A stretch of 64,000 nucleotides of DNA from Mobula hypostoma (taxonomy: Eukaryota): the NCBI RefSeq assembly GCF_963921235.1, contig NC_086097.1, positions 63,490,001 through 63,554,000 on the forward strand. The letters are read 5' to 3'. The notes beneath the pieces were generated by a model that was not told where the DNA came from, ran no database searches, and saw only the letters and a program-made list of their open reading frames with translations. How positions within the stretch are numbered: position 1 is the first letter of the stretch; each line of letters opens with the position of its first letter. Below are positions 3,450 through 57,830 of the stretch, piece by piece. Position numbers and translations under genes: made by a program.

Positions 3450-3485
3450 AGTCGACGTTTCGGGCCAAGACCCTTCGTCAGGACT
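3450..3485 (-). ncRNA. Minimal type I hammerhead ribozyme, intact core
   Basis: Minus strand reads agtc CTGACGA agggtcttggccc GAAA CGTC gact. Confidence 0.8.
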
Positions 3486-3565
3486 AACTGAAGGAAGAGT
3501 TAGTAAGAGATTTGAAAGTGGGAGGGGGAGATCCAAAGTGGTAGGAGAAGACAGGAGGGGAAGGG

Positions 3566-4108
3566 ATGGAGATCCCACCACTAAGCACGTCTTTCCCTCC
3601 CCCCCCCCAGCTTTCCGCAGGGATCGCTCCCTACGCGACTCCCTTGTCCATTCATCCCCCCCCCCCATCCCTCCCCACTGATCTCCCTCCTGGCACTTAT
3701 CCTTGTAAGCAGAACAAGTGCTACACATGCCCTTACACTTCCTCCCTTACCACCATTCAGGGCCCCAGACAGTCCTTCCAGGTGAGGCAACACTTCACCT
3801 GTGAGTCGGCTGGGGTGATATACTGCGTCCGGTGCTCCCAATCTGGCCTTCTACATATTGGCGAGACCCGGCGCAGACTGGGAAACCGCTTTGCTGAACA
3901 CCTACGCTCTGTCCGCCAGAGAAAGCAGGATCTCCCAGTGGTCACACATTTTATTTCCACATCCCATTCCCATTCTGACATGTCTATCCACAGCCTCCTC
4001 TACTGTAAAGATGAAGCCACACTCAGGTTGGAGGAACAACACCTTATATTCCGTCTGGGTAGCCTCCAACCTGATGGCATGAACGTTGACTTCTCTAACT
4101 TCCGCTGA
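3566..4108 (+). pseudogene. Penelope-like Cys linker plus GIY-YIG endonuclease domain fragment
   Basis: PCKQNKCYTC Cys motif, GVIYCVRC...HIGETRRRLGNRFAEH, LEEQHLIFRLGSLQPDGMN. Confidence 0.85.
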
Positions 4109-4395
4109 TGCCCCACCTCCCCCTTGTACCCCATCCGTTATTTGTTTTTATACACACATTCTTTCTCTCACTCTCCTTTTTCTCCCTCTGTCCCTCTCAC
4201 TATACCCCTTGCCCATCCTCTGGGTCCCCCACCCCTTGTCTTTCTCCCCGGACCTCCTGTCCCATGATCCTCTCATATCCCCTTTGCCAATCACCTGTCC
4301 AGCTCTTGGCTCCATCCCTCCCCCTCCTGTCTTCTCCTATCATTTTGGATCTCCCCCTCCCACTTTCAAATCTCTTACTAACTCTTCCTTCAGTT

Positions 4396-4431
4396 AGTCT
4401 TGACGAAGGGTCTCGGCCTGAAACGTCGACT
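4396..4431 (+). ncRNA. Hammerhead copy with mutated core (TTGACGA)
   Basis: agtc TTGACGA agggtctcggcct GAAA CGTC gact; C>T at the first core position. Confidence 0.65.
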
Positions 4432-5339
4432 GTACCTCTTCCTAGAGATGCTGCCTGGCCTGCTGCATTCACCAGCAACTTTGATGTGTGTTGCAACATA
4501 CATCAAGCCTTGCCAAATATTAACTAATCACCCTTGAGCATATCTTGAGCAGCTTCTTTCCATGTACCTTTTGTTATCCTATTTCTCTTAACCAGTGATT
4601 CGTCAGTGGGTATAACTCAGTTCATAGAAAATTGCTGACTTGTAATTGTGGAGACCACAGGTGGCCTTGTAAGACTTCCTTAGGCAGCTCTGGAGCTTGA
4701 AGACCTGTCTCAAACAGGACATATAGCCATGGTTGATAGCAGTCTGCATCGCCTGGCTGTAGGGCAACATCAAGGACACAGAAGGACTGGAAAAGATTGC
4801 TATCCTAAAAAACAAAGGTCAGGAAATTATTGCTTGACTGAGTCATTGTCTCTTTCCCATGGTAATCCTAGTAATCTGTTGCAGCAAAGATTGTTGCGAT
4901 CCAATCAGAGAGATTGGGTAATTTCTACTTTTAGAGCAATGTTGGCTGACTTATTGGCCATCAGCCACAGCATTAGCTCCTCAGTCCTGATAATGGCTTA
5001 CCTACCATTTCCAGATTGAAAACGCTGTGCAAAATCTTAGATGCTCATGGACACTGTACACAGATTTTTGGGCATGTCTGATAATTTATTAATGATTTCA
5101 ATGGATATGTTAATGTATTCTCCAGTACGTGTGTTGTAATCCCTAAGGCATTGGAGTCTGGGCTGTCTTTCCATTTGCTCTGTCTGCAGAACATTCAGAG
5201 TAATATCTATTAAGCAAGCCTGTGTCTTTGTGCCAATATTTGAATTGAAATCTGGGTGATTAATTGACAAAGTGTGTTCCAGTTCTTTCCTACTGATGCC
5301 ATCAGAAGTGTCTATTAAAAGGTGAAGAAGGGACATCCT

Positions 5340-5498
5340 AAAAAGAGTGATATCCAAAGGGATCAGCGGGTATGGAGAGAAGGCAGGTACAGGGTTCTGA
5401 GTTGGATGATCAGCCATGATCATACTGAATGACGGTGCAGGCTCGAAGGGCCGAATGGCCTACTCCTGCACCTATTTTCTATGTTTCTATGTTTCTAT
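5340..5498 (+). mobile_element. CR1 LINE 3' end
   Basis: gggccgaatggcctactcctgcacctattt followed by a (ctatgttt)n tail. Confidence 0.75.
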
Positions 5499-8818: not shown

Positions 8819-10209
8819 ATCTACATCCACCTGGACAAGCCAGCAAGCACTGTGAGGGTCATGTTTTTTGACTTCTGCAGTGCGTTCAACACCATCCGCC
8901 CTGCTCTGCTGGGGGAGAAGCTGACAGCGATGCAGGTGGATGCTTCCCTGGTATCATGGATTCTTGATTACCTGACTGACAGACCACAGTACGTGTGCTT
9001 GCAACACTGTGTGTCCGACAGAGTGATCAGCAGCACTGGGGCTCCACAGGGGACTGTCTTGTCTCCCTTTCTCTTCACCATTTACACCTCGGACTTCAAC
9101 TACTGCACAGAGTCTTGTCATCTTCAGAAGTTTTTGGATGACTCTGCCATAGTTGGATGCATCAGCAAGGGAGATGAGGTTGAGTACAGGGCTACTGTAG
9201 GAAACTTTGTCACATGGTGTGAGCAGAATTATCTGCAGCTTAATGTGAAAAAGACTAAGGAGCTGGTGGTAGACCTGAGGAGAGCTAAGGTACCAGTGAC
9301 CCCTATTTCCATCCAGGGGGTCAGTGTGGACATGGTGGAGGATTACAAATACCTGGGGATACGAATTGACAATAAACTGGACTGGTCAAAGAACACTGAG
9401 GCTGTCTACAAGAAGGGTCAGAGCCGTCTCTATTTCCTAAGGAGACTGAGGTCCTCTAACACTCACAACACGCTGGAGGAACTCAGCAGGTCGGGCAGAA
9501 TCCGTGGAAAAGATTGGTCGACGTTTTGGGCCGGAGCCCTTCATCAGGATCGGCCCGAAACGTCGACCGATCTTTTCCACGGATGCTGCCCGACCTGCTG
9601 AGTTCCTCCAGCGTGTTGTGAGTGTTGCTTTGACACCAGCATCTGCAGATTATTTTGTGCTTGAGGTCCTTTAACATCTGCCGGACGACGCTGAGGAGGT
9701 TCTACGAGTCTGTGGTGGCCAGTGCTATCGTGTTTGTTGTTGTGTGCTGGGACAGCAGGCTGAGGGTAGCAGACACCAACAGAATCAACAAACTCATTCG
9801 TAAGGCCAGTGATGTTGTTGGGATGAACTGGACTCTCTGACGGTGGTGTCTGAAAAGAGGATGCTGTCCAAGTTGCATGCCATCTTGGACAATGTCTCCC
9901 ATCCACTACATAATGTACTGGATGGGCACAGGAGTACATTCAGCCAGAGACTCATTCCACCGAGATGCAACACAGAGCGTCATAGGAAGTCATTCCTGCC
10001 TGTGGCCATCAAACTTTACAACTCCTCCCTTGGAGGGTCAGACACCCTGAGCCAACAGGCTGGTGCTGGACTTATTTCATAATTTACTGGCATAATTTAC
10101 ATATTATTATTTAACTATTTATGGTTTTATTACTATTTATTATTTATGGTGCAACTGTAACAAAAACCAATTTCCCCCGGGATCAATAAAGTATGACTAT
10201 GACTACGAC
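8819..10209 (+). mobile_element. Younger 5'-truncated Rex1-type LINE nested in the older one
   Basis: RT ORF (FFDFCSAFNTI, GAPQGTVLSPFLF, KFLDDSAI, KYLG), aataaa plus (tatgac)n tail, 5-bp TSD tacag at 8814-8818 and 10210-10214. Confidence 0.85.
9462..9661. mobile_element. About 200-bp fold-back insertion derived from a Penelope terminal repeat
   Basis: Inverted arms at about 9458-9533 and 9550-9626. 15-bp TSD tgaggtcct(c/t)taaca at 9447-9461 and 9662-9676. Interrupts the Rex1 ORF at RRLRS/RSFNIC. Confidence 0.85.
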
Positions 10210-10445
10210 TACAGGAGCCTCAGGACTTACACCACCAGGTTCAGGAACAGTTACTACCCCTCAACCATCAAGCTCTTGAACCAGAGGGGATAACTTCACT
10301 CAACTTCACTTGCCCATCATTAAAATATTCTCACAATCTATGGATGCAAACATGAGGAAATCTGCAGATGCTGGAAATTCAAGCAATACACATAAAAAAT
10401 GCTGGTGAACGCAGCAGGCCAAGCAGGAACTATAGGAAGAGGTAC

Positions 10446-10481
10446 AGTCAACGTTTCAGGCCGAGACCCTTCATCAGGACT
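10446..10481 (-). ncRNA. Minimal hammerhead ribozyme (GUU triplet)
   Basis: Minus strand reads agtc CTGATGA agggtctcggcct GAAA CGTT gact. Confidence 0.75.
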
Positions 10482-11674
10482 AACTGAAAGAAGAGATTTG
10501 AAAGTGGGAAGGAGAGGGGGATATCTGAAATGATAGGAGAAGACAGGAGAGGGAGGGATGGAGCCAAGAGCTGGAAAGTTGATTGGCAAAAGGGATATAA
10601 GGCTAGAGAAGGGAGAGGATCATGGGACAGGAGGCCTAGGGAGAAAGAAAGGGGGAGGGGGGGGTGAAGCCCAGAGGATGGGCAAGGAGTTATAGTGAGA
10701 GGGACAGAGGGAGAAAAAAGAGAGGGAAAAAAAGGGAAAAGAAAAAGCTTATTAATAATAAATAAATAAGGGATGTGGTACGAAGGGGAGGTGGGGCATT
10801 AACGGAAGTTAGAGAAGTCAATGTTCATGCCATCAGGTTGGAGGCTACCCAGACGGAATATAAGGAGTGTGGCTTCATCTTTACAGTAGAGGAGGCCGTG
10901 GATAGACATGTCAGAATGGGAATGGGACATGGAATTGAAATGTGTGGCCACTGGGAGATCCTGTTTTCTCTGGCAGACAGAGCGTAGGTGTTCAGCGGAA
11001 CGGTCTCCCAGCCTACGTCTGGTCTCGCTAATATATAGAAGGCCGCATCAGGAGCACCGGACGCAGTATATCACACCAGCCGACTCACAGGTGAAGTGTT
11101 GCCTCACCTGGAAGGACTGTCTGGAGCCCTGAATGATGATGAGGGAGGAAGTGTAAGGACATGTGTAGCACTTGTTCTGCTTACAAGGATAAGTGCCGGG
11201 AGGGAGATCGGTGGGAAGGGATGGGGGTGGGGGGGGGGGGAATGAATAGACAAGGGAGTCACATAGGTAGCGATCCCTGCGGAATGCAGAAAGGGGGGGA
11301 GGGAAAGATGTGCTTAGTGGTGGGATCCCATTGGAGGTGGCAAAAACTTTGACTTCTCCAACTTCCGTTAATGCCCCACCTCCCCGTCATACCCCATCCC
11401 TTATTTATTTATTATTAATTTTTTTTTCTTTCTCCTTTATTTTTCTCACTTTTTTCTCCCTCTGACCCTCTCACTATGACTCCTTGCCCATCCTCTGGGT
11501 TCCCCCCCCCCACTTTCTCCCCGTGCCTCCTGTCCCATGATCCTCTCATATCCCCTTTGCCAATCACCTGTCCAGCTCTTGGCTCCATCCCTCCCCCTCC
11601 TGTCTTCTCCTATCATTTTGGATCTCCCCCTCCCCCTCCCACTTTCAAATCTCTTACCATCTCTTCCTTCAGTT

Positions 11675-11710
11675 AGTCCTGACGAAGGGTCTCGGCCTGA
11701 AACGTCGACT
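11675..11710 (+). ncRNA. Minimal hammerhead ribozyme, intact core
   Basis: agtc CTGACGA agggtctcggcct GAAA CGTC gact. Confidence 0.82.
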
Positions 11711-12959
11711 GTACCTCTTCCTAGAGATGCTGCCTGGCCTGCTGCGTTCACCAGCAACTTTGATGTGTGTCACAGTCTATGGACTTAGTTTCAAGGACTC
11801 TTCATCTCATGTTCTCAATATTTATTGATTTTTGTTGTACTTGCTCTGTTTGTAGTCTTTTGACACTGGTTGAACACCAAAGTTGGTGCAGTCTTTCATT
11901 GATTCTATTATGATTGTTATTCTGTTATGGATTTATTGAGTATGCCCACAAGAAAATGAATCTTAGGGTTGTATATGTGACATATATGTACTTGGATAAT
12001 AAATTTGTTTTGAACTTTGAGCCTTGATATTTCTTGTCACCTGTTTTTCCTCCTTTCAGTCAGAATGCAACAGGACAGTTACGGACTTATTCCAGTTGCT
12101 GCCAATACAGTTTTGAGATTATTCAGTAATAGAAGTGTTTCTGGGTATGAAACAGATTTCACTACTGCTGTGAGGCACACAGCTCTCCAGCTTTATGACT
12201 GAATTTTTTTTAAAGCCTGCATTTAGTGTGAACTCTCTTGCCCATTTAAAATTTTATAGCTTTCTTCTTCATAAATAAATCAATATATTTATTATCTTCT
12301 CAAAGGTTCCATGTTTCTCTTTGTTTGAAATAATCTACAATAAACTGAGTCAATTTTTAAGTTCATAAAAATGATGTGTCAGTCTTAACTTGAAGTTGTT
12401 GATGCTGCTTAAACAGGGCTACTAAATAAATATGAAGATCTAATTGTTCTTTGGTGATTAGAAAAACATCTTAATTGGGTGTTCTAAGGCAAGCCAGACA
12501 AGGTATTGCATGAGGAATCTGCCACTGCAAAATTTGAGTGCACTGGAGCTCAAAGCATTGTGCATAGTAGATGAGTATTATCAGAGAAAATTCCCCATTA
12601 AGGCCTTTCCTCTGTTAGATTTGCCAAGGCAGAGCCAGTGGCAAATCTTGGGTATGTTGCTAGTCACTGATCACATCACTGCAAAGGTGATGCAATCATA
12701 GTGAAGGGAGGTTTCTGGCAGTGGGAGTTGAATAAGAATTAAGGACTGGTGGAGAACGGGGAAGTTGAGGAAATTCAAAGTCATCATCAGTTTGGAGAGC
12801 ATCAGGCTCTATATGTTACCAAGGGACAAGGGGCCGCTGATGGACCAGGTTACTTTGAGATGTAAGAGAGACCAGTGGCAAAGGACAAATTCATAAGTCC
12901 ACTGCCTGCTAGTTCTGAACATCAGACTGGAATCTACATAGGCATTGAAGTATGCATTA

Positions 12960-13748
12960 TTAATAATAAATAAATAAGGGATGGGATACGAAGGGGAGGT
13001 GGGCATTAATGGAAGTTAGAGAAGTCAATGTTCATGCCATCAGGTTGGAGGCTACCCAGATGGAATATAAGGTGTTGTTCCTCCAACCTGAGTGTGGTTT
13101 CATCTTTACAGTAGAGGAGGCCGTGGATAGACATGTCAGAATGGGAATGGGATGTGGAATTAAAATGTGTGGCCACTGGGAGATCCTGCTTTCTCTGGCG
13201 GACAGAGCGTAGATGTTCAGCAAAGCGGTCTCCCAGTCTGCGTCGGGTCTCGCCAATATATAAAAGGCCACATCGGGAGCACCGGACGCAGTATATCACC
13301 CCAGCCAACTCACAGGTGAAGTGTTGCCTCTCCTGGAAGGACTGTCTGGGGCCCTGAATGGTGTTAAGGGAGGAAGTGTAAGGGCATGTGTAGCACTTGT
13401 TCCGCTTACAAGGATAAGTTCTGGGAGGGAGATCAGTGGGAGGGGATGGGGGGAGCGGGGACAAATGGACAAGGGAGTTGCGTAGGGAGCGATCCCTGCA
13501 GAAAGCCGGGGGGGGTGAGGGAAAGATGTGCTTAGTGGTGGGATCCCATTGCAGGTGGTGGGAGAATTATATGTTGGACCCGGAGGCTGGTGGGGTGGTA
13601 GGTGAGGACAAGGGGAATCCTATTCCTAGTGGGGTGGCGGGAGGATGGGGGATGGGATCTCTTACTATCTCTTCTTCCAGTTAGTCCGAAACATTGACTG
13701 TACCTCTTCCTATAGATGCTGTATGGCCTGCTGCGTTCACCAGCATTT
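12960..13748 (-). mobile_element. Penelope-like element fragment with an intact-looking GIY-YIG frame (13006-13464) and an inverted plus-strand tail (about 13657-13748)
   Basis: GVIYCVRC...YIGETRRRLGDRFAEH. 15-bp TSD ttgaagtatgcatta at 12945-12959 and 13749-13763. Confidence 0.88.
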
Positions 13749-14380
13749 TTGAAGTATGCATTACATTCATTCTGAAGCCCTGCCTTGTTATGAGTGGTCT
13801 GTAACTAAGGGCCCAAAAAAGAGCATTGTGATTTTCTGAACATTACTTTCAGAGTAGACCTGCAAGTGATTTCACAAATTTTGATTAAAATCATGGTAAG
13901 TGTATTTTTGATAAAAATTATATTGTGAGTCATACTTAAATGCTGTGATCTGCAATGGAAATTTAGGATAAAATCATTATTTTAGCAGCAATTTTGTTTC
14001 CCTTTGTACTATGAAAACTATTGCTTATTCTGGAGTTTCAGCTATTAACACGTGGTATGATTAAAAAAGAAAGCTGCCAGTTATGCAGATCTGAAGCATT
14101 TGAAGTGTGAAACAGATTTACATTGCAAGATACCATTATTCCCTGTGGAGAGGGGAGATGGCCTTTCTGAGCAATAAGCCTAATTCATCAAAAGTTTAGT
14201 AATTATGGAGTTTTTCTTGTTCTGATGTAATGCACAAAACTGCTTTGATTTTAAAATAAAACACGCAACATTTTAATGTATGTTTATGTATTACTACCCT
14301 ATTTCCAACAAAGTTCTACCAGCTCAGCAATGTTAAATTCACTCTTTACTTTGTTATAAACCTACAGATGCCCAAGCAAT

Positions 14381-16470: not shown

Positions 16471-17068
16471 TTTACGCTAAGCCGGTGGATTGGACTGAAC
16501 ACAGAACAGGAGCAAGAGACAGCTACCGACAGAATGGCATCAACTATAGGCATCAATAGCACTCTCATTTCTATGATAGGTGTCAGGTCCCAGCCCACCA
16601 CAGAATCTTAAGCACATAAGCAAGACCAATACTTCATTGCTGTAATGAAGGAGCGCTGTATCCCTAGAAATGCTCTTTTAAATGTGACATTAAACTGTGG
16701 ACCACAAAAGTGTTAGACAAGACCGAGCATTTCCCACTGTAAGGTGCTCAAAGAAGGCACTTTACTGTCGTCGTGGGAAACTGTGAATGTGAACACATTG
16801 CGGCATCAAACCAGTGGCAGTGCACCCACAAAGCACACCAGGGGATCTCCCACTCCTTAATCCTAAATGGGTAAATTGTAACCTGGCCTTTGTGCTTCTC
16901 TTCTCTTCTGAGATCAAAGGCAGCGATGAGAGAAAGGAAAATATACTGAATAAAATTTTTTAAATAGGTCAATAGAGGTCAAATAACAAAGCAGAGAAGA
17001 AAAGTTTAGCCTAGAAATAACTTGATCTTCCTAAGGTTAGATATTTAAGGTTTAGTGAATAAAATAGC

Positions 17069-17746
17069 AACACACATCAAAGTTGCTGGTGAACGCAGCA
17101 GGCCAGGCAGCATCTCTAGGAAGAGGTACAGTCGACGTTTCGGGCCGAGACCCTTCATCAGGACTAACTGAAAGAAGAACTAGTAAGAGATTTGAAAGTG
17201 GCAGGGGGAGGGGGAGATCCAAAATGATAGGAGAAGACAGGAGGGGCAGGGATGGAGCCAAGAGCTGGACAGGTGATTGGCAAAAGGGATATGAGAGGAT
17301 CATGGGACAGGAGGCCCAGGGAGAAAGAAAAGGTGGAGGGAGGGAAAAAACCCAGAGGATGGGCAAGGGATATAGTGAGAGGGACAGAGGGAGAAAAAGG
17401 AGAGAGGGAAAAAGAATGTGTGTATATTAATAAATAAATAACAGATGAGGTGGGGGATTAGCGGAAGTTTGAGAAGTCAATGTTCATGTCATCAGGTTGG
17501 AGGCTACCCAGACGGAATATAAGGTGTTGTTCCTCCAACCTGAGTGTGGCTTCATCTTTACAGTAGAGGAGGCCGTGGATAGACATGTCAGAATGGGAAT
17601 GGGATGTGGAATTAAAATGTGTGGCCACTGGGAGATCCTGCTTTCTCTGGCGGACAGAGCATAGGTGTTCAGCGAAACAATCTCCCAGTCTGCGTCAGGT
17701 CTCACCAATATATAGAAGGCCACATCAGGAGCACCAGACGCAGTAT
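17069..17746 (-). mobile_element. Penelope-like element, 5'-truncated, no inversion
   Basis: GIY-YIG C-terminal remnant plus terminal repeat. 10-bp TSD ataaaatagc at 17059-17068 and 17747-17756. Confidence 0.85.
17130..17165 (-). ncRNA. Minimal hammerhead ribozyme, intact core
   Basis: Minus strand reads agtc CTGATGA agggtctcggccc GAAA CGTC gact. Confidence 0.8.
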
Positions 17747-22914: not shown

Positions 22915-23244
22915 GTCCAGATGCTTCTAAAGCTGTGCTTTAACATCTGCTTCTACCACCTCCTCTAGAGGCATGTTACAGATATTTTTGCACACCCTCC
23001 AATGTTTCCATATCTTAGAATGATGTGAAACACAACGCCATCACGTGGAGGGTCGTGCAGAACAAATAATGTCAAAAATCATATGTTATATACCCTGAAA
23101 CTTGGCTACTCCTTGCTTACATGCCTGATTGAATGCCAAACCTTTAAATATTCCTAATGAATATGAAATATTGTTTGCAAATCTTTTCCCACTGATATTT
23201 CTGAATGTTCCAAAAGCTATTAAAATTAGTGAAACCATTAGCAT

Positions 23245-23490
23245 GCACAGGTTCCTGGAAGAACTCAGCAAGTTAGGCAGCATCTATGCAGGGGAATAAA
23301 CAGTCAGTATTTTGGGCCAAGACCCTCAATCAAGACTGGAAAGGAAGAGGACAGAAACCAGAACATGAGGGGACGGAGTATAAGTTATGAGGTGATAGGT
23401 GAGACCAGGTGAGGGGGAAGGTGGGTGGGGGAAGGGGAGGATGAGTAAAAAGCTGTGGGGTGGGGATCAATGGAAGAGATAAAGAGAAAC
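23245..23490 (-). mobile_element. Older Penelope-derived terminal-repeat copy with decayed hammerhead
   Basis: ctggaagaactcagcaag...cagcatctatg...gggccaagaccctcaatcaagactg, similar to the family tail. Confidence 0.6.
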
Positions 23491-27200: not shown

Positions 27201-27239
27201 AAGATGGATTTGGATTCACTGCTTTGCAGCTCCCAGACA

Positions 27240-28310: not shown

Positions 28311-28332
28311 ATTGGATTCCTATTGCAGACAA

Positions 28333-29519
28333 CAGGAATTCTGCAGATGCTGGAAATTCAAGCAACACACATCAAAGTTGCTGGTGAACGCAGCAGGCCA
28401 GGCAACATCTCTAGGAAGAGGTACAGTCAACGTTTCAGGCTGAGAATCTTTGTCAGGACTAACTGAAGGAAGAGTTAGTAAGAGATTTGAAAGTGGGAGG
28501 GGGAGGGGGAGGTCCAAAATGATAGGAGAAGACAGGAGGGGAAGGGATGGAGCCAAGAGTCGGGTCTCACCGTCCTCCACCATCAACTCTGCTCCCAAAC
28601 ACATCTCCCCCATTTCACGCACATGTTCTCTCACTCCATCCTCCCACCACCCCACTAAGAATACGGTTCCCCTGGTCGTCACCTACCACCCCACCAGCCT
28701 CCGGGTCCAACATATTATTCTCCGTAACTTCCGCCACCTCCAACGAGATCCAACCACTAAGCACATCTTTCCCTCCCCCCGCTCAGCATTCCGCAGGGAT
28801 CGCTCCCTATGCGACTTCCTTGTCCATTCGTGCCCCCATCCCTCCCCACTGATCTCCCTCCTGGCACTTATCCTTCTAAGCGGAACAAGTGCTACACATG
28901 CCCTTACACTTCCTCCCTTACCACCATTCAGGGCGCCAAACAGTCCTTCCAGGTGAGGCAACACTTCACCTGTGAGTCGGCTGGGGTGATATACTGCGTC
29001 TGATGCTCCCGATGTGGCCTTCTATATATTGGCGAGACCCGATACAGACTAGGAGACCGCTTTGCTGAACACATACGCTCTGTCCACCAGAGAAAGCAGG
29101 ACCTCCCAGTGGCCACACATTTTAATTCCACATCCCATTCCCATTCCCATTCTGACATGTCTATCCACGGCCTCCTCTACCGTAAAGATGAAGCCACACT
29201 CAGGTTGGAGGAACGACACCTTATATTCCGTCTGGGTAGCCTCCAACCTGGTGGCATGAACATTGACTTCTCTAATTTCCGCTGATACCCCACCTCTCCC
29301 TCGCACCCCATCCGTTATTTGTTTTTATACACACATTCTTTCTCTCACTCTCCTTTTTCTCCCTCTGTCCCTCTGACTATACCCCTTGCCCATCCTCTGG
29401 GTTCCCCCCCTCCTCCCTTGTCTTTCTCCCCAGACCTCCTGTCCCATGATCCTCTCATATCCCCTTTGCCAATCACCTGTCCAGCTCTTGGCTCTATCCC
29501 TCCCCCTCCTGTCTTCTCC
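28333..29519 (+). mobile_element. Penelope-like element: inverted tail (about 28333-28560, minus) plus plus-strand thumb/GIY-YIG fragment
   Basis: VPLVVTYHPT, NKCYTC, GVIYCV. 15-bp TSD tcctattgcagacaa at 28318-28332 and 29520-29534. Confidence 0.88.
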
Positions 29520-30639
29520 TCCTATTGCAGACAAAAAGGATGAGTGCAGACGGCAATACACTGTGGGCCAAAGCTGTCTCGCCGCGCTGTACAACTGTGC
29601 CTATATTACTCAGTTATTGAACAACATAACCAGGAATTCATTTGAATTTGATATGAGTTAATGTTGTGCAGACATCCCATAAAGGATCTTGCACATTTGG
29701 GACAAAGGAAATGAGTGAGACTAGCAGCAGCCATTCCCCCAGGTACAGAAAAAGCTTTTAACAATGTAATGAATATTTTTCTTCCACACTCTAGAGAGAG
29801 ATGCAAATCTGGCTAGCAGCTTGCTCGGTGGATTAAAGTATGATACAATTTTCTAATACGCCTTGATGAATGAATTGCATACCCCTTTGTTATAGTAATC
29901 TGATCCCAAGTCAAAGCAGTCAGAAATCCATATAGCTTGCAGTCAAAATGCATCTGATGTGCCTTACATTGATAACTCATGATATACCTGCTCAAAAATC
30001 TCCAATGAGGATTTCCTGTGCAGACAAACTCAATTACCCCAATTGTGGAGGAGAAGCAAGCTGAAATTACTATTTATTCTCAATATCATTTTTATGAATT
30101 TTTATACTTCTATAAAAATATTTTTGACTAAAAGAGAAGATGAAATGTCTCCTAATATAGCTTGCACACTGAAAATATCCAAAGGTCAGAAATTTGCTCA
30201 AAAAAAATCAAAGTAGTAATGGATATGTCAGGTGGACTGACAAATCCAGCTGAAATCTACAGTATTAGGATAATACTAATTTTTCAATCTAAGCACAAAA
30301 AATGACAGCAACATACAGCAGGTCAGGCAACCTCTCTGGAGAAAAACAAACCTAATGTTTCAGGTCATTCATGTTTCTGGAGAAATTGTAAAGTGTTGTG
30401 CATTCATTGTAATTTAAAAGTTCCATAGGGGCTCAGGCAGAACATTTGCAAGGGGCTTCAGGCATGCAACAACCTCTGCAATTCTTAATCTAGTAGGAGA
30501 CTGCAATAGCAGGAACTAAATTTTAAGAGCTCACCGTAACAACTTGTACACAAAACAAGCTCAAATGCCTAGTGGAAAGCAGACAGCATTATGACTTTGA
30601 GCAGAGCAGCCTGTTATGTTAATTATTACAATGACCAAC

Positions 30640-35577: not shown

Positions 35578-35712
35578 CCCATCCTGATGAAGGGTCTCAG
35601 CCCAAAACGTCGACTCCTTTCCATAGATAATGCCTGGCCTGCTGAATTCCTCCAGCATTTTTTGTGTGTTGCTTGGGTTTCCAGTATCTGTAGATTTTCT
35701 CTTGTTTGTGAT
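35578..35712 (+). mobile_element. Short Penelope-derived tail copy with decayed hammerhead
   Basis: atcCTGATGAagggtctcagcccAAAAcgtcgact (GAAA>AAAA) followed by the family tail. Confidence 0.7.
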
Positions 35713-36152
35713 TCAACTAATAATCACATTTCAATTTGAGGAATGTCAGATCCTGGAGGACTCTGGCGCCCCCTCGTGATCAGACTGAAGCATGACACCT
35801 CTTTCACAATCCTGCCAAGTCCAATACCAATGGCAGACTTGGAAATATGGCATTTTCTCTCCTCAGCCAAATCACTGATACAGATTTGTGAGTATACAAG
35901 GTCCAAGCACCACTGTCTGCAAACACCAGTAGTGATAACTTGCAGATCTGAAAAGAACATTCCCACTCTCTGTTTTCTGTCTAATAACTAATCCTATATC
36001 AATGTTCATTGCATACTACTTTGCTGATGATCTCCTTTGTAGGACATGATCAAAAGTCCAAATGCACAACTACTGGTTCCCTTTACCTTTTCCAGTATAG
36101 ATACATCCTCAGAGATTAAGGAACTAATTAACTACAAACATAAGATGCTACT

Positions 36153-44860: not shown

Positions 44861-45127
44861 AGGTCAGTTTGCGGAAATATAGAAAATGGGGTGGAATCAA
44901 ATTGAACAAGCTATGCTATGATTTACATGACCTATACCTTAGCAGGAGCAATTGAGGCATTTCCAGTAATGAAAGAAAGGCAAAGTGGATAATTAAAGCC
45001 AAAGTCAAGATTAAGCACAAGTCTCCTGATATACAAATAAGTCCTGTTTATATTCTTATTGGTGCTTACTAATAAAATTTAATTCATTGACATTTAGACA
45101 ACTGATTATTTAATGATTTAACTGATT

Positions 45128-45581
45128 TTGTGGGGGTGATCATGAATATGGAAAGTGCGGAACAGGAGTTCAACCAAAATGCTGCAATTGTGGAGGAGCT
45201 CATAATGTTGCATATAGTGGGTGTGAGGTTGTGAGACGGGAGACTAAAATTCAAGAAATAAGAGTGAAAAGAAAGATCACTTATGCAGAAGCTGTAAGAA
45301 TGTCAAGAGAACAGAATAATGCTCCTAATGAACAGGGAGCAATAGGGATACGAGAGATGCAACAAAGAACAAATGACAGGATTTATGTAGACAAAAAGGC
45401 TCTAGTAACATTCATTGTAGGAGTGATTAATAGTACTTCTGAGGTAAAGTCAAAAAGTGACAAAATTCAGCTGGTGGTAAAAGCAGCAGTAAACCATTTA
45501 GGGTTAGTAGGACTGACATGGGAGGAAGTGAGGGAGAACCTAAGTAATCAGTCAAGCCAGGAAGTGTCATGTGTTGGTTAA
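45128..45581 (+). pseudogene. LINE ORF1 C-terminal part (gag-like zinc knuckles)
   Basis: CGGDHEYGKC and CCNCGGAHNVAYSGC; stop at 45579-45581. Confidence 0.8.
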
Positions 45582-45589
45582 TACTAATT

Positions 45590-48500
45590 ATGGTGATTCT
45601 TTTACAATGGAATGCAAGGAGCTTACTGGCCAATAGCCAGGAATTCAAGCACTTTATTAAAGAAATGGTTGTAAAACCGGATGTAGTGTGTATTCAGGAA
45701 ACTTGGTTGAAACCAACTTTAGACTTTGTGGTATATGGGTATACAATGATAAGGAAAGATAGAAATCTAGGGGGAGGAGGGGGTTGTGCTATGTTAATCA
45801 AGCAAGGTATGCCATATAGAGTGCTGGAAAAAGGAGATGATCAGGAATACATAGTGGTGGAAGTGTGGGAGAGGGGGGGAAGGAGTGGTTATAATTAACT
45901 ACTACAATCCATGTAAAAGGTTGGATTTGGACAGCCTATTAAAGATACAAGGACAAAACAGACACAAAGTGTGGTGTGCAGATTCAATGCTTATAGCACA
46001 ATATGGGGGGATCAGATTACAGATCCAAATGGAAAGGTAATTGAAGATTTGATGGAAGAAAGGGATTTGGTGTGTATGAATGATGGTAGCGGCACAAGGA
46101 TAGATATAACAACAGGAACTGAGTCAGTGTTAGATATTACGTTAGTGTCTAATACCTTGGCTGGCATTAGTAACTGGGGAGTTTGGACTGCTTCAACAGT
46201 AGGCAGTGATCACTACCCAGTTTTGTGTTCAGTGGGTGAAAGAGTTGAAGTAAGACCAGGTGGCGGAACCCCAAAGTGGGTGTTTGAAAAAGCTGATTGG
46301 GGTAAGTTCCAGAAGTTGAGTGAAGAAGGGTTGACAAAGATTGATATTTCTGGAAATGTAGATGAATTAAACAGTCAGGTGACTTCAGCAATTATCATGG
46401 CAGCAGAAGGATCTATACCTAGGAGTAAAAATAGGATGAATAGAAAACTGGTACTATGGTGGACAGAGGAATGTTGTCAGGCTGTAAAAAACAGAAATAG
46501 AGCATTCAGGCTAGTTAAAAGAACCCATAATATGCAGCATTTGGTTCAATATAAGAAAGCACAGGCAGTGGTGAGAAGAACTATACGTCAAGCTAAAAGG
46601 GCAAGTTGGTGGAGTTTTTGCGACAAGGTAGGAAGAACAACACCTGTGGGAGAGATATGGGGAATGATTAAGAGGACGGGAGGAGATAGAAGGGAATGGG
46701 AATATCCAGTAATGATATCTGAGGAGGAAACTGCAGTCTCCAGTAGGGATAAGGCTGAGGTCATGGCCAAGTCATTTGTACTGATACACAGTTCAGAAAA
46801 TTTGTCTGAAGAAGGGAGAAGAAGAAGGGAAAGAATAATGAGCCAACACCCAGGTGTGTTAAGCAGGAGGGAAGGAACAGATGATATAATTGATGATCCA
46901 TTTACATTAGCAGAAATGGTGAGAGCAATAAAGAGATCGAGACCAACCTCCCCAGGGAAAGATCTGATATGCTCTGTGATGCTAAAAAATCTAGGAGAAG
47001 GAGCGCTCTTGAAGTTGCTGCATTTTTATAACAGAGTGTGGGAGGAGGGAAGATTACCAAGTGCATGGAAAGAAGCAGTAGTAATTCCAATAAGGAAGCC
47101 TGGCAAGGATCTGTCAAAACCCACTAGCTACAGACCAATTGCATTAACATCAAGTATATGTAAGATAATGGAAAGGATGATAACAGAAAGGTTATCATAT
47201 GAGCTTGAGAAAAGGGGAATGCTGGCAAGTTATCAGAGTGGTTTTAGAAAGGGAAGGAATTCCATGGACTCAGTGATTATGTTAGAGACTGAAATAAGGA
47301 AGGCCCAGGCAAATAGAGAGTCAGTAGTGGCAGTGTTCTTTGACATTGAAAAAGCCTATGATATGATGTGGAAGGAAGGATTATTAATTAAACTGCACAA
47401 GATGGGGGTTGGTGGGAGAGTTTTTAATTGGATTAAAGATTTTTTGTTTGGTAGAAAAATTCAAGTTCGGATTGGATCAGAATGATCAAAACAGTACATA
47501 GTGGAAAATGGCACACCTCAAGGTAGTGTGATTAGCCCGTTACTTTTCATGATTATGATCAATGATGTCTTCACAAAGGTACCAGTGGATATAGGTAGGT
47601 CACTGTTTGCGGATGATGGGGCCTTATGGAAAAGAGGCAGGAACACGGACCATATAATCAGGAAACTACAAGAAGCAATTGATGAAGTGGTGGAGTGGGG
47701 TTATGATTGGGGATGTAGATTTTCAGTAGACAAAACTCAGACTGTATTTTTTACCAGGAAAAGGGTTGAGGTAGGGAAGAAGTTAAGGATGTATGGGGTT
47801 GAATTAGAAAGGGTTGCATCATTTAAATTTCTGGGAGTTATACTTGATTCACGATTGACATGGGCAGACCATATCAGGAAAGTTGAGGAGAAATGTAAAA
47901 AAGTAATAAATGTGATGAGATGTTTGACTGGTAGGGAATGGGGAGCAAGTTGTTCAGCTTTGAAGAGAATGTATGTGGCTTTAGTAAGATCTGTATTGGA
48001 TTATGGAAATATAGTATATGGATCAACAGCTAGGTCTCTTATAAGGAAACTGGATGTGATTCAGGCTCAGGCCTTGAGAGTGTGCAGTGGGGCTTTTAAA
48101 ACGTCACCAGTGTCAGCCGTACAGGTAGAAATGGGAATAATGCCTTTGGAACTAAGAAGGATGCAACTGATGGCAAACTACTGGGCTAACTTGCAAGGGC
48201 ACAATGATTCTCACCCTACTAAAGGAGTGTTGCAGGAGTGCTGGGAAAATGGGAGGTTTCAGAGGGATACCTTTAGTCGGGTAGGGAATGATATCGCGAA
48301 AGAATGTGGAGTATTTGATCTGAGGATAAGTCCTTCAGTAGTTTATCCGGTTGTAGCTCCATGGAAGCTTGTATGGCCTGACATAGACTGGCATTTGTTA
48401 GAGGTAAAAAGGAAAGAAAGATATAAAACAGATTTGGTAAATGCAGTTAACTGTCATGTGATGGAAAAGTACAGTGATTATACTCACGTTTATATGGATG

Positions 48501-49336
48501 GTGCGAAGGAACCTGAAACAGGAGTGACAGGGTTTGGGGTGGTAATACCAGCAAAAGAAATTGGAATCAGCAGAAGAACACCTAATAAGTTAGGGGTGTT
48601 TACAGTGGAGATGCTGGCAGTGTTGGTTGCATTGCAATGGGTGCAGAAAGCCAGACCATCCAAAGCATTGATATGTTCAGATTCATCCTCAGTTCTAGCA
48701 AGTTTAAGGTCTTTTCACACAAACAGTCGGCAAGATGTACTTTATGAGGTCCTTCAGTTAGTTACAAGAATTGTAAATCAGGGAGGTCCGGTAAAATTTC
48801 TATGGGTTCCAGCACATGTAGGGGTGAAGGGGAATGAGAGGGTGGATGAGTTGGCAAAGAGGGCGTTAAAGAAAGAAAATGTGGAAATGCACATTAGTAT
48901 CAGTAAAGCAGAGGTTAAGTGTGTAGTCTGGGAAAAAATCAACCGAATGTGGCAAGAAAGATGGGACAGGGAGGGGAAAGGGAGGCATTTATATCAAATA
49001 CAAAAGAGTGTTGCAGTTACTAGGGTAGGTAATGGAAGCAGAAGAGAGGAAATTGTGTGGACTAGGTTAAGGCTGGGGCATTGTGCATTAAACAAAACAT
49101 TGAAAATGATAGGGAAACACCAGACAGGATTGTGTGAGGAATGTTGGGAAGAGGAGTCAGTAGAACATGTAGTTTTGTGTTGCAGGAAGTATGGGATACA
49201 GAGAGAGATGATGAGAAATAAATTAAGCGAGTTGGGGATGCAGGAATTCACATTAAAAGGGTTGCTGGGCATGGGTGAGAGAGCACAAGTCTGGGTATTT
49301 TTAGCGTTTTTAAGGGGTACAGGGGTTTTTTTATAG
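45590..49336 (+). pseudogene. LINE ORF2: AP endonuclease, reverse transcriptase, RNase H and C-terminal zinc knuckle
   Basis: QWNARSL, CIQETWL, SDHYP; YRPIALTS, FFDIEKAYD, GTPQGSVISP, LFADDG, FKFLG; YMDG...E...SDS...WVPAHVGVKGNERVD; CEEC..H..C. Disrupted by two apparent frameshifts (about 45875 and 45970) and an in-frame TGA at 47483-47485. Confidence 0.9.
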
Positions 49337-50780: not shown

Positions 50781-51113
50781 TTGGATTGAATCATATAAGA
50801 AATTAGGAATTTTGTGACACACCTATTTAGATTGTCACAAACCTATCATTCCAGATAGAGGGACTGGATTTCATGTTTGTAATGATGTCAAAGTTATTAG
50901 TGCTTAATGGTGGGGAGAGCTTTACCCATGATGAACTGGGCCATATCCACTAATTTTTGAACAGAAAATCCTACAAGAGCATTGGTTGGCGTTTCCATAA
51001 CAGGCAGTGATGCAGCCAGTCAACATACACTCCACTACACATCTATAGAAGCAACACACATCAAAGTTGCTGGTGAACACAGCAGGCCAGGCAGCATCTA
51101 TAGGAAGAGGCGC

Positions 51114-51149
51114 AGTCGACGTTTCAGGCCGAGACCCTTCGTCAGGACT
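51114..51149 (-). ncRNA. Minimal hammerhead ribozyme, intact core
   Basis: Minus strand reads agtc CTGACGA agggtctcggcct GAAA CGTC gact. Confidence 0.82.
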
Positions 51150-51967
51150 AACTGAAGGAAGAGTGAGTAAGGGATTTGAAAGCTGGAGGGGGAGGGGGAG
51201 ATGCAAAATGATAGGAGAAGACAGGAGGGGGAGGGATAGAGCCGAGAGCTGGACAGGTGATAGGCAAAAGGGGATACGAGAGGATCATGGGACAGGGGGT
51301 CTGGGAAGAAAGACGGGGGGGGGGAGGGGGTGACCCAGAGGATGGACAAGAGGTATATTCAGAGGGACAGAGGGAGAAAAAGGAGAGTGAGAGAAAGAAT
51401 GTGTGCATAAAAATGAGTAACAGCTGGGGTACGAGGGGGAGGTGGGGCCTAGGGGAAGTTAGAGAAGTCAATGTTCATGCCATCAGGTTGGAGGCTACCC
51501 AGACGGAATATAAGGTGTTGTTCCTCCAACCTGAGTGTGGCTTCATCTTTATCCACGGCCTCCTCTACTGTAAAGATGAAGTCACACTCAGGTTGGAGGA
51601 ACAACACCTTATATTCCGTCTGGGTAGCCTCCAACCTGATGGCATGAACATTGACTTCTCTAACTTCCGCTAAGCCCCACCTCCCCCTCGTACCCCAGCT
51701 GTTACTCATTTTTAGGCACACATTCTTTCTCTCACTCTCCTTTTTCTCCCTCTGTCCCTCTGAATATACCTCTTGCCCATCCTCTGGGTCACCCCCCCCC
51801 CCGTCTTTCTTCCCGGACCTCCTGTCCCATGATCCTCTCGTATCCCCTTTTGCCTATCACCTGTCCAGCTCTCGGCTCTATCCCTCCCCCTCCTGTCTTC
51901 TCCTATCATTTTGCATCTCCCCCTCCCCCTCCAGCTTTCAAATTCCTTACTCACTCTTCCTTCAGTT

Positions 51968-52003
51968 AGTCCTGACGAAGGGTCTCGGCCTGAAACGTCG
52001 ACT
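51968..52003 (+). ncRNA. Minimal hammerhead ribozyme, intact core
   Basis: agtc CTGACGA agggtctcggcct GAAA CGTC gact. Confidence 0.82.
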
Positions 52004-52169
52004 GCGCCTCTTCCTATAGATGCTGCCTGGCCTGCTGCGTTCACCAGCAACTTTGATGTGTGTTGCTTGAATTTCCAGCATCTGCAGAATTCCTGTTGTA
52101 CACATCTATAGAAGTCTGCCAAAGTTTTTGATGTCATGCCAAATCTCCAGAAACTCCTAAAGAAACAAG

Positions 52170-53675: not shown

Positions 53676-54087
53676 CCCCCCACCCTTCACCGATTCCCAT
53701 TTCCCCCTCTCACCTTATCTCCTTACCTGCCTATCACCTCCCTCTGGTGCTCCTCCCCCTTCCATTTCTTCCATAGTTTTCTACACTCTCTTCTCAGATC
53801 CCCCTTCTCCAGTCCTTTATTTCTTTCACCAATCAACTTCCCAGCTCTTTACTTCACCCCTCCCTCTCTTTCGGTTTCACCAATCACCTGCCACGTTGTA
53901 CTTCTCCCCCCCCCCCCCCAACCTTCTTGCTCTGACTTTGCATCATTTTATCCAGTCCTGATGTAGGGTCTCGGCCTGAAACATCAACTGTTTACTCTTT
54001 TCCATAGATGCTGCCCGACCTGCTGAGTTCCTCCAGCATTTTGTATGTGCTGCTTGGATTTCCAGCATCTGCAGAATTTCTTGTGTT
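53676..54087 (+). mobile_element. Older Penelope-derived terminal-repeat copy with decayed hammerhead
   Basis: agtcCTGATGTagggtctcggcctGAAAcatcaact. 13-bp TSD taagaaacaattg at 53663-53675 and 54088-54100. Confidence 0.75.
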
Positions 54088-54825
54088 TAAGAAACAATTG
54101 TCTTATTCTGACCTCCTGATCCATCCTAACAGTACTGTGAGTTGAAAGATAACCAATTTTTCTCCCCTTCGAGGCCTCACTTTATATACTAAAGTGACAT
54201 CCAAAAATAATGATAATGCAATTAATAGGAAACTTTAGAAGCAAAATCATGGACACCAGCTTGTTAATCAGGAGGTGTTATTTCTTATGTCTCAATAACT
54301 GAAATAAACAAAACCTACTCGAAGCTTGAGAATATTCCAAGCTCAAGCTTTAATGTTCAGAACATAGAAAGCATAAAATAAGTTAGTTATTTGATCAGTA
54401 AATCCCAATCCTTCTATCCTGTTCATGAACTGAACACTGAAGTAACAATGGTTTTGTCCTTGCTTCTCCTTAATCAGATATTTGAGAAATTAATATCTTC
54501 TCTTACTTCCCTTCCATGAATTCAAAGATCCTAAATGAAATAAAGACAAACAGAACCAGCTGTTCATGAAGAACTTCATCCAAGAATACTAGAGGAACTC
54601 CAAAGTAAATTCCAAAGAAAACCAACAACCCATCCCCTTCCTCATTTTGCCATTGCACCCTTCAATCATCCACAATACAAGAAAAAGCTCACAAAGTTAA
54701 CATTTCAAATCTCATTTCTAAATGAATATACAAATGTTGCCTATAAAGGACAACTAAGTACCCTTGATGTAGTGGCCCCATGTATGTTATACCAGTTCTC
54801 ATACTGACTCTGCTGGGAAATAGCT

Positions 54826-55769
54826 GATTGTTCTGGATTGCTTTGTGGATCCAGAACTGGCTTGCCCACAGAAGGCAAAGAGTGGTTGTAGATGGGTCAT
54901 ATTCTGCATGGAGGCCGGTGACCAGTGGTGTGCCTCAGGGATCTGTTCTGGGACCCCCTACTCTTTGTGATTTTTTATAAGTGACCTGGACGAGGAAGTG
55001 GAGGGATGAGTAAATAAATTTGCTGATGACACAAAGGTTGGGGGTGTTGCGGATACTGTGGAGGGCTGTCGGAGATTATAACGGACATTGATAGGATGTA
55101 AAACTGGGCTGAAAAGTGGCAGATGGAGTTCAACCCAGATAAGTGTGAGGTGGTTCATTTTGGTTGGTCAAATATGATGGCAGAATATAGCATTAATGGT
55201 AAGCCTCTTGGCAGTGTGGAGGTTCAGAGGGATCTTGGGGTCCATGACCATAGGACACTCAAAGCTGCTACGTAGGTTGACTTTCTGGTTAAGAAGACAT
55301 ATGGTCCATTTGCCTTCATCAATCGTGGGATTAAGTTTAAGAGCTAAGAGGTAACGTTGCAACTATATAGGATACTGGTCAGACCCCACTTGGAGTACTG
55401 TGCTCAGTTCTGGTCTCCTCACTACAGGAAGGATGTGGAAACCATAGAAAGGGTGCAGAGGAGATTTACAAGGACGTTCCCTGGATTGGAGAGCATGCCT
55501 TATGAAAACAGGTTGAGTGAACTTGGCCTTTTCTCCTTGGAGTGATGGAGGATGAGAGGTGACCTGATAGAGGTATACAAGATGATGAGAGGCATTGATC
55601 ATGTGGATAGTCAGAGACTTTTTCCCAGGGCTGAAATAGCTAGCATGAGAGGGCACAGTCTTAAGGAGTTAAAAAGTAGATACAGAGGAGATGTCAGGGG
55701 TCGGCAGCCCATTCCACGCACTCACCACTCTCTATGTAAAAAAAACTTACCCCTGACATCTCCTCTGTA
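54826..55769 (+). mobile_element. CR1 ORF2 3' fragment with inverted 3' tip
   Basis: [41 protein letters not shown]. Confidence 0.85.
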
Positions 55770-56913
55770 ATAGGTTATGACAAAAGAAATAAGTGGCTGG
55801 AGCTACTTAGCACTTTAGCACAAGGGTGTGTCAAAAATCAAACCTACAAAAGTTAGTAAAAATTGCAAAAATAAAACTGCCAGTATTTACAAAAAGATAC
55901 CCACCAGAAAACACAACAATAGCTCTATAATATTTTTCGTCCAGTGTAAACTCCTGGCAGCCCCTTTTCGTCTCTCCTACTGAGAGCAAAGATCCCCGTT
56001 TATTGGGCACTAGGACATACCATGTTTAATTACCAACAAAGTTAACTTAAGACTACACATGAATTAGATTATGATTCTCCCCACAATGTTGTTACAATCA
56101 TATTACAAAATAAACAGAAGGATCTACCTTAAATACAATATACAAACAACATGAACACATTTACACATCCCCATTCCTTAAGGAATTGAATACCCCACAA
56201 TGTGTGGCGGGAAAGGCAGCAGAAAGCCAAACCGAGCGCATCCAATATCAGTTTAGGAGAATATACCGGGGAAGACATCGAGAAGCGTACACTCAGCGTA
56301 ATGAGAGCAGATTGACAAGGCAATGTTTGTGTGTGTTTTGTGAGTAAATGCACGTGTGGAAGGAGTACGTTTACCGAGTGCTCTCCATCACCAAGACTAC
56401 TCCAAGTAAGCTACACCTGGGGTTCTGGTGGCCCCCCTAAAGGAAGACAAGAGAAAACTGAAATGCACTGACTGAATGGGTGGTAGAGGCAGAGACTCTC
56501 ACAACGTTTAAGGATTATCTCTTCAGGCACGTGAATTACCAAAGCAACGAAGGCTATGCATCAGAGTGATGGCAAATAGAATTAGTATAGACATCATGGC
56601 CAGCATGATCATGGTGGGTCAAAGGGATGTGTGAACCAATGACTCTCCTCTTACCAATGAAAATACTGCAGCTGTGAGAATAAAAGGACAACAATATGGA
56701 ATGCCATTTTTTTATTCTGTTTGTAATAATTTGTAAAGATTATTTTTTATAAAATTCTGTTCAGCTTCAAATTCAGTACTTTGTTTAATTTTTAATAGAC
56801 TTTGAATACTCCTGAATGTCAGCCTTCAAAACCATTCCAATATTTTGACAGCTTTGACAAATGCAAAGCTGGGGGCAACACTTTCTGTTCTTCAAAGTGT
56901 TTCCCAGCAAATT

Positions 56914-57040
56914 CTGACGAAGGGTCTCGGCCTGAAACGTCGACTGCGCCTCTTCCTATAGATGCTGCCTGGCCTGCTGCGTTCACCAGCAACTTTGATG
57001 TATGTTGCTTGAATTTCCAGCATCTGCAGAATTCCTGTTG
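56914..57040 (+). mobile_element. About 125-bp Penelope tail insertion that begins at the hammerhead core
   Basis: CTGACGA agggtctcggcct GAAA CGTC gact plus family tail. 15-bp TSD ttcccagcaaattct at 56901-56915 and 57041-57055. Confidence 0.85.
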
Positions 57041-57723
57041 TTCCCAGCAAATTCTTCTGACTTGCTCCCAAGACCTAATTATTTGCACTGGTAATTTACA
57101 GGTCCTCACCAACTGGCTTTGGGACACTCTGCCAGCAGTTGAGACCTAATGTACAGGCTAATGGAGAACCTAAATGTGGGCAGTGAACTTCACTTGGGAA
57201 AATCTAAATTAAGGTTAACAATCTATAAAATATGCAGAGAGCAAAAAAGGTTCATCTAAAACTACACATGCTAGTTATATCAATCATATTCACGAACGTT
57301 AGAGTTATTCTGTCAGCAGTTTCAACAGTGGCTGAGTGGGTATGAACCTTTTCTCAGAATCAGACTTATAGACTCAAGATCCACTCCAGAGACACATCTA
57401 CAAAAGTCCAGGCTGACGTTCCAGTCTAGCAGACTAACTGAAATGCTGCCTTTTGGATGAGATATTAAACTGTGCACATCTGCTATCTCCCATGGTCATT
57501 GTAGATCTATGTGAAAGGCTGCAGTGTGCAAGTCCTGATCACATTTCTGGTATGTAGCTATAATCATACTCCCAAATAATGTTTAATTGCCTGTTAGGTG
57601 TTTTTGGCCAACTTGAGGCAAAGAATGTACCTTGCGACACTTTAACTGATGGTATCCCATCCAAGATACTACTGGGAAAATACTGAAACCAGTTCTTGAA
57701 ACTGTCTGTTCCATTAGAGCCAT

Positions 57724-57830
57724 CAGTCCTGAGGGAGGGTCTCGGCCCAAAACGTCGACTACTTACTCTTTTCCATAGGTGCTGCCTGGCCTGCTGAGCT
57801 CCTCCAGCATTTTGTGCCTGTTGCTTTGTA
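57724..57830 (+). mobile_element. Older Penelope tail copy with decayed hammerhead
   Basis: agtcCTGAGGGagggtctcggcccAAAAcgtcgact. Confidence 0.65.

Follow-up and report, generated by a model that had tools for sequence, protein, structure and literature searches.

What does a self-cleaving RNA motif do for a retrotransposon that has left it at tens, by extrapolation hundreds, of thousands of places in one genome? The question is raised by a 64,000-nucleotide stretch of the ray Mobula hypostoma (RefSeq assembly GCF_963921235.1, contig NC_086097.1, positions 63,490,001 to 63,554,000, forward strand), referred to below as the window. A preliminary description had proposed that the window holds about 15 copies of a minimal, probably dimer-acting hammerhead ribozyme carried by the Penelope family, and that the genome may contain a very large family of self-cleaving RNAs missed by annotation based on open reading frames (ORFs). 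Counts in the tens of thousands now reveal that the ends of copies avoid the predicted cut site and gather at the start of stem I of the ribozyme, and that two downstream start sites are used one each. The account that we consider probable is that the carrier is a Neptune-type Penelope-like retrotransposon whose fragments in the window are inert, that cutting is weak and either paired or helped by protein, that RNA starts at the motif and that it is mostly copied uncut.

A minimal hammerhead of a known class

The motif is a minimal type-I hammerhead of Penelope-like elements, a class already known (Cervera and De la Pena 2014, PMC4209133). What the ray adds is a new member of this class; the motif as such is no discovery. 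Positions in the motif are numbered from C3 of the CUGA box (+1), with 0 for the preceding base; this puts the A of AGUC at -3 and the predicted cut just after +28. The copy at 3450..3485 on the minus strand displays the anatomy of the core: stem I (AGUC/GACU), the CUGACGA box, an unpaired A, stem II with its G10.1-C11.1 pair, the GAAA box, the sequence ACGU and a GUC cut triplet. Stem II had been described as AGG/CCU; the best reading is GGGU/GCCC(U), preceded by an unpaired A.

Seven copies in the window, and none in controls, have both core boxes (CUGANGA, GAAA) together with a UH cut triplet, and a strict descriptor takes exactly these: six with a 5-bp stem I, and one (56914) without. Their C3 residues lie at 3481(-), 10477(-), 11679(+), 17161(-), 51145(-), 51972(+) and 56914(+), the copy at 10477 having a GUU cut triplet. 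The preliminary description had located these seven copies, the decayed copies and the predicted cuts after 51999 and 11706 correctly. Its estimate of about one copy per 4 kb was also close, a profile of the terminal segment finding 17 copies in the window (one per 3.8 kb) and none in the reversed sequence. The motif is also missed by Rfam, which reports no hammerhead family among 29 matches to the window at E<=5.

Genome-wide scale was estimated from 96 samples, each of 10 kb and placed at a round coordinate of a large contig; two of the samples flank the window. In these 960 kb the profile finds 184 copies, or one per 5.2 kb, which extrapolates to some 670,000 copies in the genome. In the same sample 16 intact motifs pass the strict descriptor (about 58,000 genome-wide), and none passes after reversal, complementation or any of five shuffles. 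A 31-nt pattern has 57,460 exact matches in the 3.48-Gb genome and none when reversed, and a chance origin of the motif is thus excluded. Much lower figures, 4,000 for the coelacanth and 9,000 for Xenopus, counted by another method, are given in PMC4209133, the available text of which does not name cartilaginous fishes.

The marks given there for minimal hammerheads are a palindromic stem III, a G10.1-C11.1 pair and an unpaired nucleotide. In M. hypostoma copies stem III is the palindrome ACGU, and the unpaired A is present in 47 of 48 older copies and in all 129 copies of family A, a set chosen on its core. The G10.1-C11.1 pair is found at 3481, at 17161 and in older subfamilies, with G-U in its place in five of the seven window cores; by eye, U11.1 for C11.1 is the most numerous version (81 of 100 matches listed). 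The ray differs from the published class in this commonest version, in a stem II of 4 bp rather than the 7-8 bp of Schistosoma, and in one amplified subfamily with A6 changed to C (2,840 exact genome matches, 0 in the control).

Extra conservation of core positions, which the preliminary description had proposed as a check, is seen within the ray: AGTC...GACTG is kept between subfamilies while the flanks diverge and N7 and the loop vary, and stem I is extended by a C-G pair in older subfamilies and by U-G in family A. It is seen further afield in 80 related loci from metagenome contigs, scanned with a descriptor that demanded stem pairing but neither a palindrome, nor G10.1-C11.1, nor an unpaired nucleotide. 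Stem III is palindromic in 25 of the 29 sense-strand hits, with seven different palindromes, and in none from the reversed and complemented controls; among 23 distinct palindromic motifs, 20 have G10.1-C11.1 and 22 the unpaired nucleotide (by eye). Distant families have covarying stems together with a palindromic stem III. Four related elements (L306, L339, L360 and L371) have a U3-A8 core covariation and 6-nt stem III palindromes. A second hammerhead family in the same genome keeps the core on a different, 7-bp stem II (GAUGGCA/UGUCAUC), with at least 1,774 matches and none in the control; one of its loci weakly matches an endonuclease motif (probability 21%). The stem I of this second family (L235, L264-L293 around 1500) is short and interrupted.

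The carrier element

Carrier units of about 3.5 kb have the motif at each end on the same strand, as in three of 17 long loci (L124, L125 and L140). This is the location given for the class, in both terminal repeats and on the sense strand of a Penelope-like element. The two motifs are spaced 3,462-3,522 nt apart, and same-strand motif pairs are confined to full-length elements. The full element has a 16-codon upstream ORF (uORF) at +48 and its main ATG at +167. In one element recovered by genome walking (L049), a 645-amino-acid open frame encodes a reverse transcriptase (RT) followed by a GIY-YIG endonuclease (EN) with CCHH residues, the Pfam matches (RVT_1, E 6.4e-6; GIY-YIG, E 0.058) both falling below cut-off. 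Between RT and EN lies a CX2-5CxxC linker, CKRNKCYTC in L049 and in ORFs of the window, and the closest named proteins are from M. hypostoma (92%) and then from sharks (69-76%).

On the evidence of its linker and CCHH motifs, the carrier is classed as a Neptune-type Penelope-like retrotransposon, a Cx4CxxC linker with CCHH matching the Neptune/Nematis definition (Craig et al. 2021, PMC8557442). The clade assignment rests on motifs rather than on a tree with named references, none of which appeared among the protein hits, and Nematis shares the linker; these points weigh against it. Like the ray element, Neptune-clade elements with an endonuclease have a single ORF in which RT precedes a C-terminal GIY-YIG domain, a CX2-5CxxC linker and CCHH, and undergo 5' truncation, form partial tandems and inverted 5' copies, and have a 30-40-bp tail at one end (PMC8557442). 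The element anatomy, the related loci and the proteins together bear out the original view of a minimal type-I hammerhead with palindromic stem III carried by a Penelope-like element.

A further conserved segment lies 3' of the cut site (52017-52099 and its equivalents), where the uORF start and predicted hairpins are kept across subfamilies. The segment, a candidate protein-binding signal, includes two GU-rich stretches at the two sites where copies end on the 3' side.

Where copies begin and end

No 3' end among 207 family-A copies that reach the motif falls at the cut site, and the majority lie near +95 or +130. The two positions are used together in mirrored pairs, insertions with two arms in opposite orientation. 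One arm came from each 3' site in 24 of 30 such pairs, the same site was used twice in none, and in the remaining six one arm ended elsewhere. Target-site duplications, mostly of 13-15 bp, flank 24 of 29 mirrored pairs, against 11 of 812 controls with mismatched flanks. Published descriptions of inverted terminal repeats and of one-sided tails exist (PMC3846280; PMC8557442).

At the 5' side, a break was counted wherever the sequence upstream of a copy fails the consensus at three positions. Breaks at about +1 to -5, just before CUGA, affect 4,742 of 45,363 copies (10.5%). The adjoining upstream window has 1,096 of 47,818 (2.3%), and the cut site 1,222 of 99,546 (1.2%). The 5' ends gather at -2 to -4. 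Inspection by eye of 100 matches listed gave 5, 10, 11, 26, 26, 19 and 3 copies keeping 0, 1, 2, 3, 4, 5 and 6 upstream bases, respectively; 71 of them keep three to five, which correspond to the 5' strand of stem I. As to an additional G derived from a cap, 13 of the 26 ends that keep four bases, among the matches listed, continue with G, a figure confounded by inversions and duplications.

Several points weigh against this pattern. The mirrored pairs were partly taken from loci chosen for truncation, and the upstream control window likely holds the tail of the peak and some indels. Of 100 matches listed for the cut-site window, about 28 break exactly at +29, neighbouring positions having about seven each; these breaks are mostly inversions, deletions and CpG changes (by eye), and a small footprint of cleavage may be present. 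Overall, the genomic ends give no clear sign of cutting.

One alternative is that the motif of this lineage has almost no enzymatic activity and persists as a promoter, protein-binding or RNA-pairing element. The amplification of the A6-to-C subfamily, the replacement of C11.1 by U11.1 in the commonest version and the lack of a pile-up of ends at the cut site all fit such a view. So do findings with PAc, a Poseidon element of the lizard Anolis carolinensis, catalytic mutants of which still insert in vitro and reads of which never end at the cut (Frangieh et al. 2024, PMC11167929), and the spread of Naiad elements without the motif (PMC8557442). Set against this, A6C has been discussed as an active natural variant (PMC7151607). 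Very distant elements with altered stems moreover retain the core, the cut triplet and the palindrome, consistent with selection on the catalytic fold. We regard loss of nearly all enzymatic function as unlikely.

A probable transcription start at the edge of the ribozyme

Family A and the older subfamilies share an A/T-rich block at -35 to -28, with a TATA-like block near -33, about 30 nt upstream of the edge of stem I. In the second hammerhead family, clear CCAAT and TATAAA sequences lie comparably far upstream, and breaks at 0 to -8 are seen in six of 31 loci (by eye). The spacing of the block and a pyrimidine-A start fit the rules for RNA polymerase II promoters. Since the peak of breaks at the start of stem I lies about 30 nt after the TATA-like block, transcription is suggested to start there, the likeliest reading being that the RNA begins at the A of AGUC.

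The same stretch can be read in another way. At 51940-51971 and in equivalent positions, TACTCAC or TACTAAC is followed by a pyrimidine tract and by CAG or TAG right before the core, resembling a splice acceptor, and this stretch might trap host transcripts. That it reads as branch point, pyrimidine tract and AG counts against a transcription start, as does the non-canonical form of the TATA-like block in family A (TTCAAA). In Drosophila virilis, furthermore, an intron ends at helix I of the ribozyme and transcription starts 46 nt before the intron (PMC4209133; PMC2377424).

Two candidate causes of the 5' pile-up were set aside. Fold-back of the copy through stem I accounts for about one in 100 listed matches. 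Among 30 loci examined for a captured spliced exon, six are non-inverted copies with a 10-15-nt or 7-nt duplication; the duplication adjoins the element and there is no exon. No shared exon sequence is present in 100 listed flanks, and there is no strong splice donor within 340 nt upstream, better donors lying in the ORF. In eight sets of contigs of uncertain kind, no GT-AG joint with its end at stem I stood among the joints listed, at most 15 at a time with 36 and 4 more beyond the listing, a result that speaks for neither reading. Because the duplications adjoin the element without an exon, a transcription start is favoured over a splice acceptor.

An acceptor would nonetheless have a place in a scheme of cutting and religation, a model proposed in PMC4209133. 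Cleavage at the two motifs would release a unit that closes into a circle, the template for copies of more than unit length; the 5' pile-up would then reflect a splice acceptor or a stall in copying. Two same-strand motifs do flank the 3.5-kb unit, copies do continue past the cut site, as expected of a ligated circle, and the acceptor-like sequences do precede the motif. A seamless circle, however, provides no cause for ends at stem I, and the evidence from duplications, listed flanks and fold-back just described speaks against the additional causes. We think this scheme very unlikely to account for the ray copies.

Do the dispersed copies cleave?

The suggestion that the motif acts as a dimer finds no support in the copies of the window. 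There is no same-strand tandem of motif copies, five of the six intact copies face an antisense twin in the same insertion, and monomers are predicted to adopt an inactive fold. This fold is a rod in which GACG of the core pairs with CGUC; in isolated 37-mers its calculated probability is 0.94-0.99 for five copies and about 0.5 for the one with GUU, and downstream context lowers these values to 0.53-0.96 and 0, respectively. Folding of 51049-52099 predicts that the pair 51114-51149 / 51968-52003 would be fully double-stranded in a read-through RNA. Predicted energies are -10.9 and -16.1 kcal/mol for the double hammerhead, -21.4 and -25.2 for two rods and -29.7 and -35.3 for an alternative duplex. 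Such energies take no account of magnesium or of tertiary contacts, which counts against relying on them. The copies in the window are 5'-truncated fragments and likely inert.

Could dispersed copies nevertheless form a very large active family that cuts host transcripts by mutual pairing, a strong form of the large self-cleaving RNA family that the preliminary description had proposed? The number of copies that keep the full descriptor is certainly high (some 58,000, from 16 in 960 kb, alongside 57,460 exact pattern matches), and intact copies on one strand might be transcribed into a single long pre-mRNA, those at 3481, 10477 and 17161 on the minus strand being about 7 kb apart. Yet none of the 16 intact motifs in the sample has a same-strand intact partner in its own 10-kb stretch, antisense twins would mask five of the six intact window copies, the double hammerhead is predicted to be far less stable than two rods or the alternative duplex, and the ends show no clear cutting. 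Relatives are of low activity, with weak dimer cleavage reported (PMC4209133); one of nine frog dimers was cleaved and eight were not (bioRxiv 10.64898/2026.07.22.740005), and the PAc ribozyme cleaves only with protein and is dispensable for insertion (PMC11167929). An active family on this scale seems to us highly improbable.

The frog ribozymes belong to a study of animal non-LTR retrozymes which, like the ray copies, have a type-I hammerhead from Penelope terminal repeats, and for which one chondrichthyan is reported (bioRxiv 10.64898/2026.07.22.740005). Retrozymes form head-to-tail arrays, whereas the window copies are solo or head-to-head. A retrozyme array was therefore rejected for the ray, with no head-to-tail array in the window and no same-strand partners for the 16 sampled motifs.

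A model for the life cycle

In the scheme that we favour, an internal promoter (the TATA-like block near -33 and a pyrimidine-A start) would begin the RNA at the A of AGUC. The element protein would nick the target on each strand and initiate copying at about +95 and +130. In most cases synthesis would reach the 5' end of the RNA and run off, leaving stubs or head-to-head palindromes; in rare cases it would continue from longer or jumped templates to yield full elements. Fragments tend to start at the front edge of the motif and not at the predicted cut site, and the RNA therefore likely starts there and is mostly copied uncut. The two same-strand motifs of full-length elements would likely cut weakly, when paired or with the help of protein; any cutting would be rare or late, and would mainly trim the 3' end.

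PAc offers a supporting analogy, with protein-assisted cutting, two internal copying starts downstream of the ribozyme with the tail between them, cutting of both target strands and uncut RNA as template (PMC11167929), the last three as proposed for the ray. The ray linker is by contrast of Neptune type, and the main ATG of the ray element lies 167 nt from C3 behind a short uORF, whereas that of PAc is inside the ribozyme. The pile-up of 5' ends at stem I and the strict use of one site of each kind are seen in the ray and are not described for PAc in the available text.

Copies in the window

The 17 profile copies represent 13 insertions when mapped to the full element, since several are opposite-strand twins in one insertion. 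Two-motif, opposite-strand insertions lie at 3351-4494, 9458-9665, 10346-11770 and 51049-52099. In the first, a head-to-head insertion, the minus arm has the intact motif at 3450..3485 and the plus arm a decayed one (C3 to U) at 4396..4431 (+). Between them, 3545..4108 (+) encodes the C-terminal end of a Penelope-like ORF, with a Cx4CxxC linker and a putative GIY-YIG endonuclease with CCHH (E 4.7e-4, below the Pfam cut-off); its stop codon is about 290 nt upstream of the 4396 motif. The second, 9458..9665, is a palindromic insertion of an older subfamily whose arms join inside the ribozyme, with G12 changed to A in the minus arm, only the 3' half in the plus arm and an imperfect target duplication of about 15 bp; the profile counts both halves, at 9458-9628. 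The third, also head-to-head, has intact cores in both arms, at 10446..10481 (-), with the GUU site, and at 11675..11710 (+), with the predicted cut after 11706. The fourth, a single head-to-head insertion, has intact motifs at 51114..51149 (-), of the G10.1-U11.1 version, and at 51968..52003 (+), with the predicted cut after 51999. Both 3' sites serve as ends of its arms (+97 and +128), and its flanks have a target-site duplication (a 16-nt match). In another two-armed insertion, 28325-29520, the minus arm has a decayed motif at 28425..28460 (-; G8 to A, changes in stem II) and the plus arm holds ORF sequence that extends from the RT thumb as far as the endonuclease.

The sole intact copy without an antisense twin is at 17130..17165 (-), a CUGAUGA motif with G10.1-C11.1 in a single 5'-truncated copy (17066-17748). 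The copy without stem I is a 129-bp stub at 56914..57042 (+) that starts at CUGA, lacks the 5' strand of stem I and has a 15-bp target duplication (56901-56915 / 57041-57055). The remaining copies are decayed. That at 13657..13758 (+) has lost most of the core between the stem I 5' strand and GAAA, and an old remnant of the terminal segment at 30313..30366 (-), found by the profile, had been missed. Four belong to older subfamilies: 23242..23340 (-); 35582..35716 (+), a stub starting at the edge of the ribozyme (G12 to A, no stem I 5' strand); 53954..54088 (+), with A9 to U and CpG decay in stem III; and 57725..57826 (+), a stub starting at CAGTC (A9 to G, G12 to A).

Elsewhere in the window, 45126-49336 (+) is a near-complete LINE with an ORF1 fragment bearing a CCHC-like knuckle, followed by endonuclease, RT and RNase H regions (Pfam) split by one stop. 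Fragments at 39873-42238 (-), without a Pfam hit of note, resemble a restriction-like-endonuclease non-LTR element, and an open frame at 63403-63780 (+), without a Pfam hit, we take to be gag/PNMA-like. A CT-rich and then GA-rich tract at 36150-36700, a low-complexity inverted pair, is the source of most weak Rfam miRNA matches.

Implications

The genome-wide count of intact motifs should not be taken as a count of active ribozymes. The value of the ray copies lies in their scale and in mechanism, the statistics of their ends giving a testable model of what the motif does. Both the role of the hammerhead in Penelope elements and the regeneration of terminal repeats are stated to be open questions (PMC8557442; PMC2377424). 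A literature search, with most subscription journals outside its scope, found no account of hammerheads in elasmobranch Penelope-like elements, of transcription starting at the edge of the ribozyme or of twin priming by Penelope-like elements.

One tentative extension of the model, possible if somewhat doubtful, is that the first base of the ribozyme is also that of the RNA and that cutting by paired motifs shortens the 3' copy alone, leaving the same 31-nt hammerhead sequence at both ends, across which cDNA could jump to rebuild the terminal repeat. If so, the 31-nt repeat would act like the R region of a retrovirus, with short cDNAs from the two internal sites jumping from the 5' end of the RNA to its 3' end. 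Stubs and palindromes, which number hundreds of thousands in this genome, would then be fossils of 'strong-stop' synthesis after twin priming on the two strands of the target.

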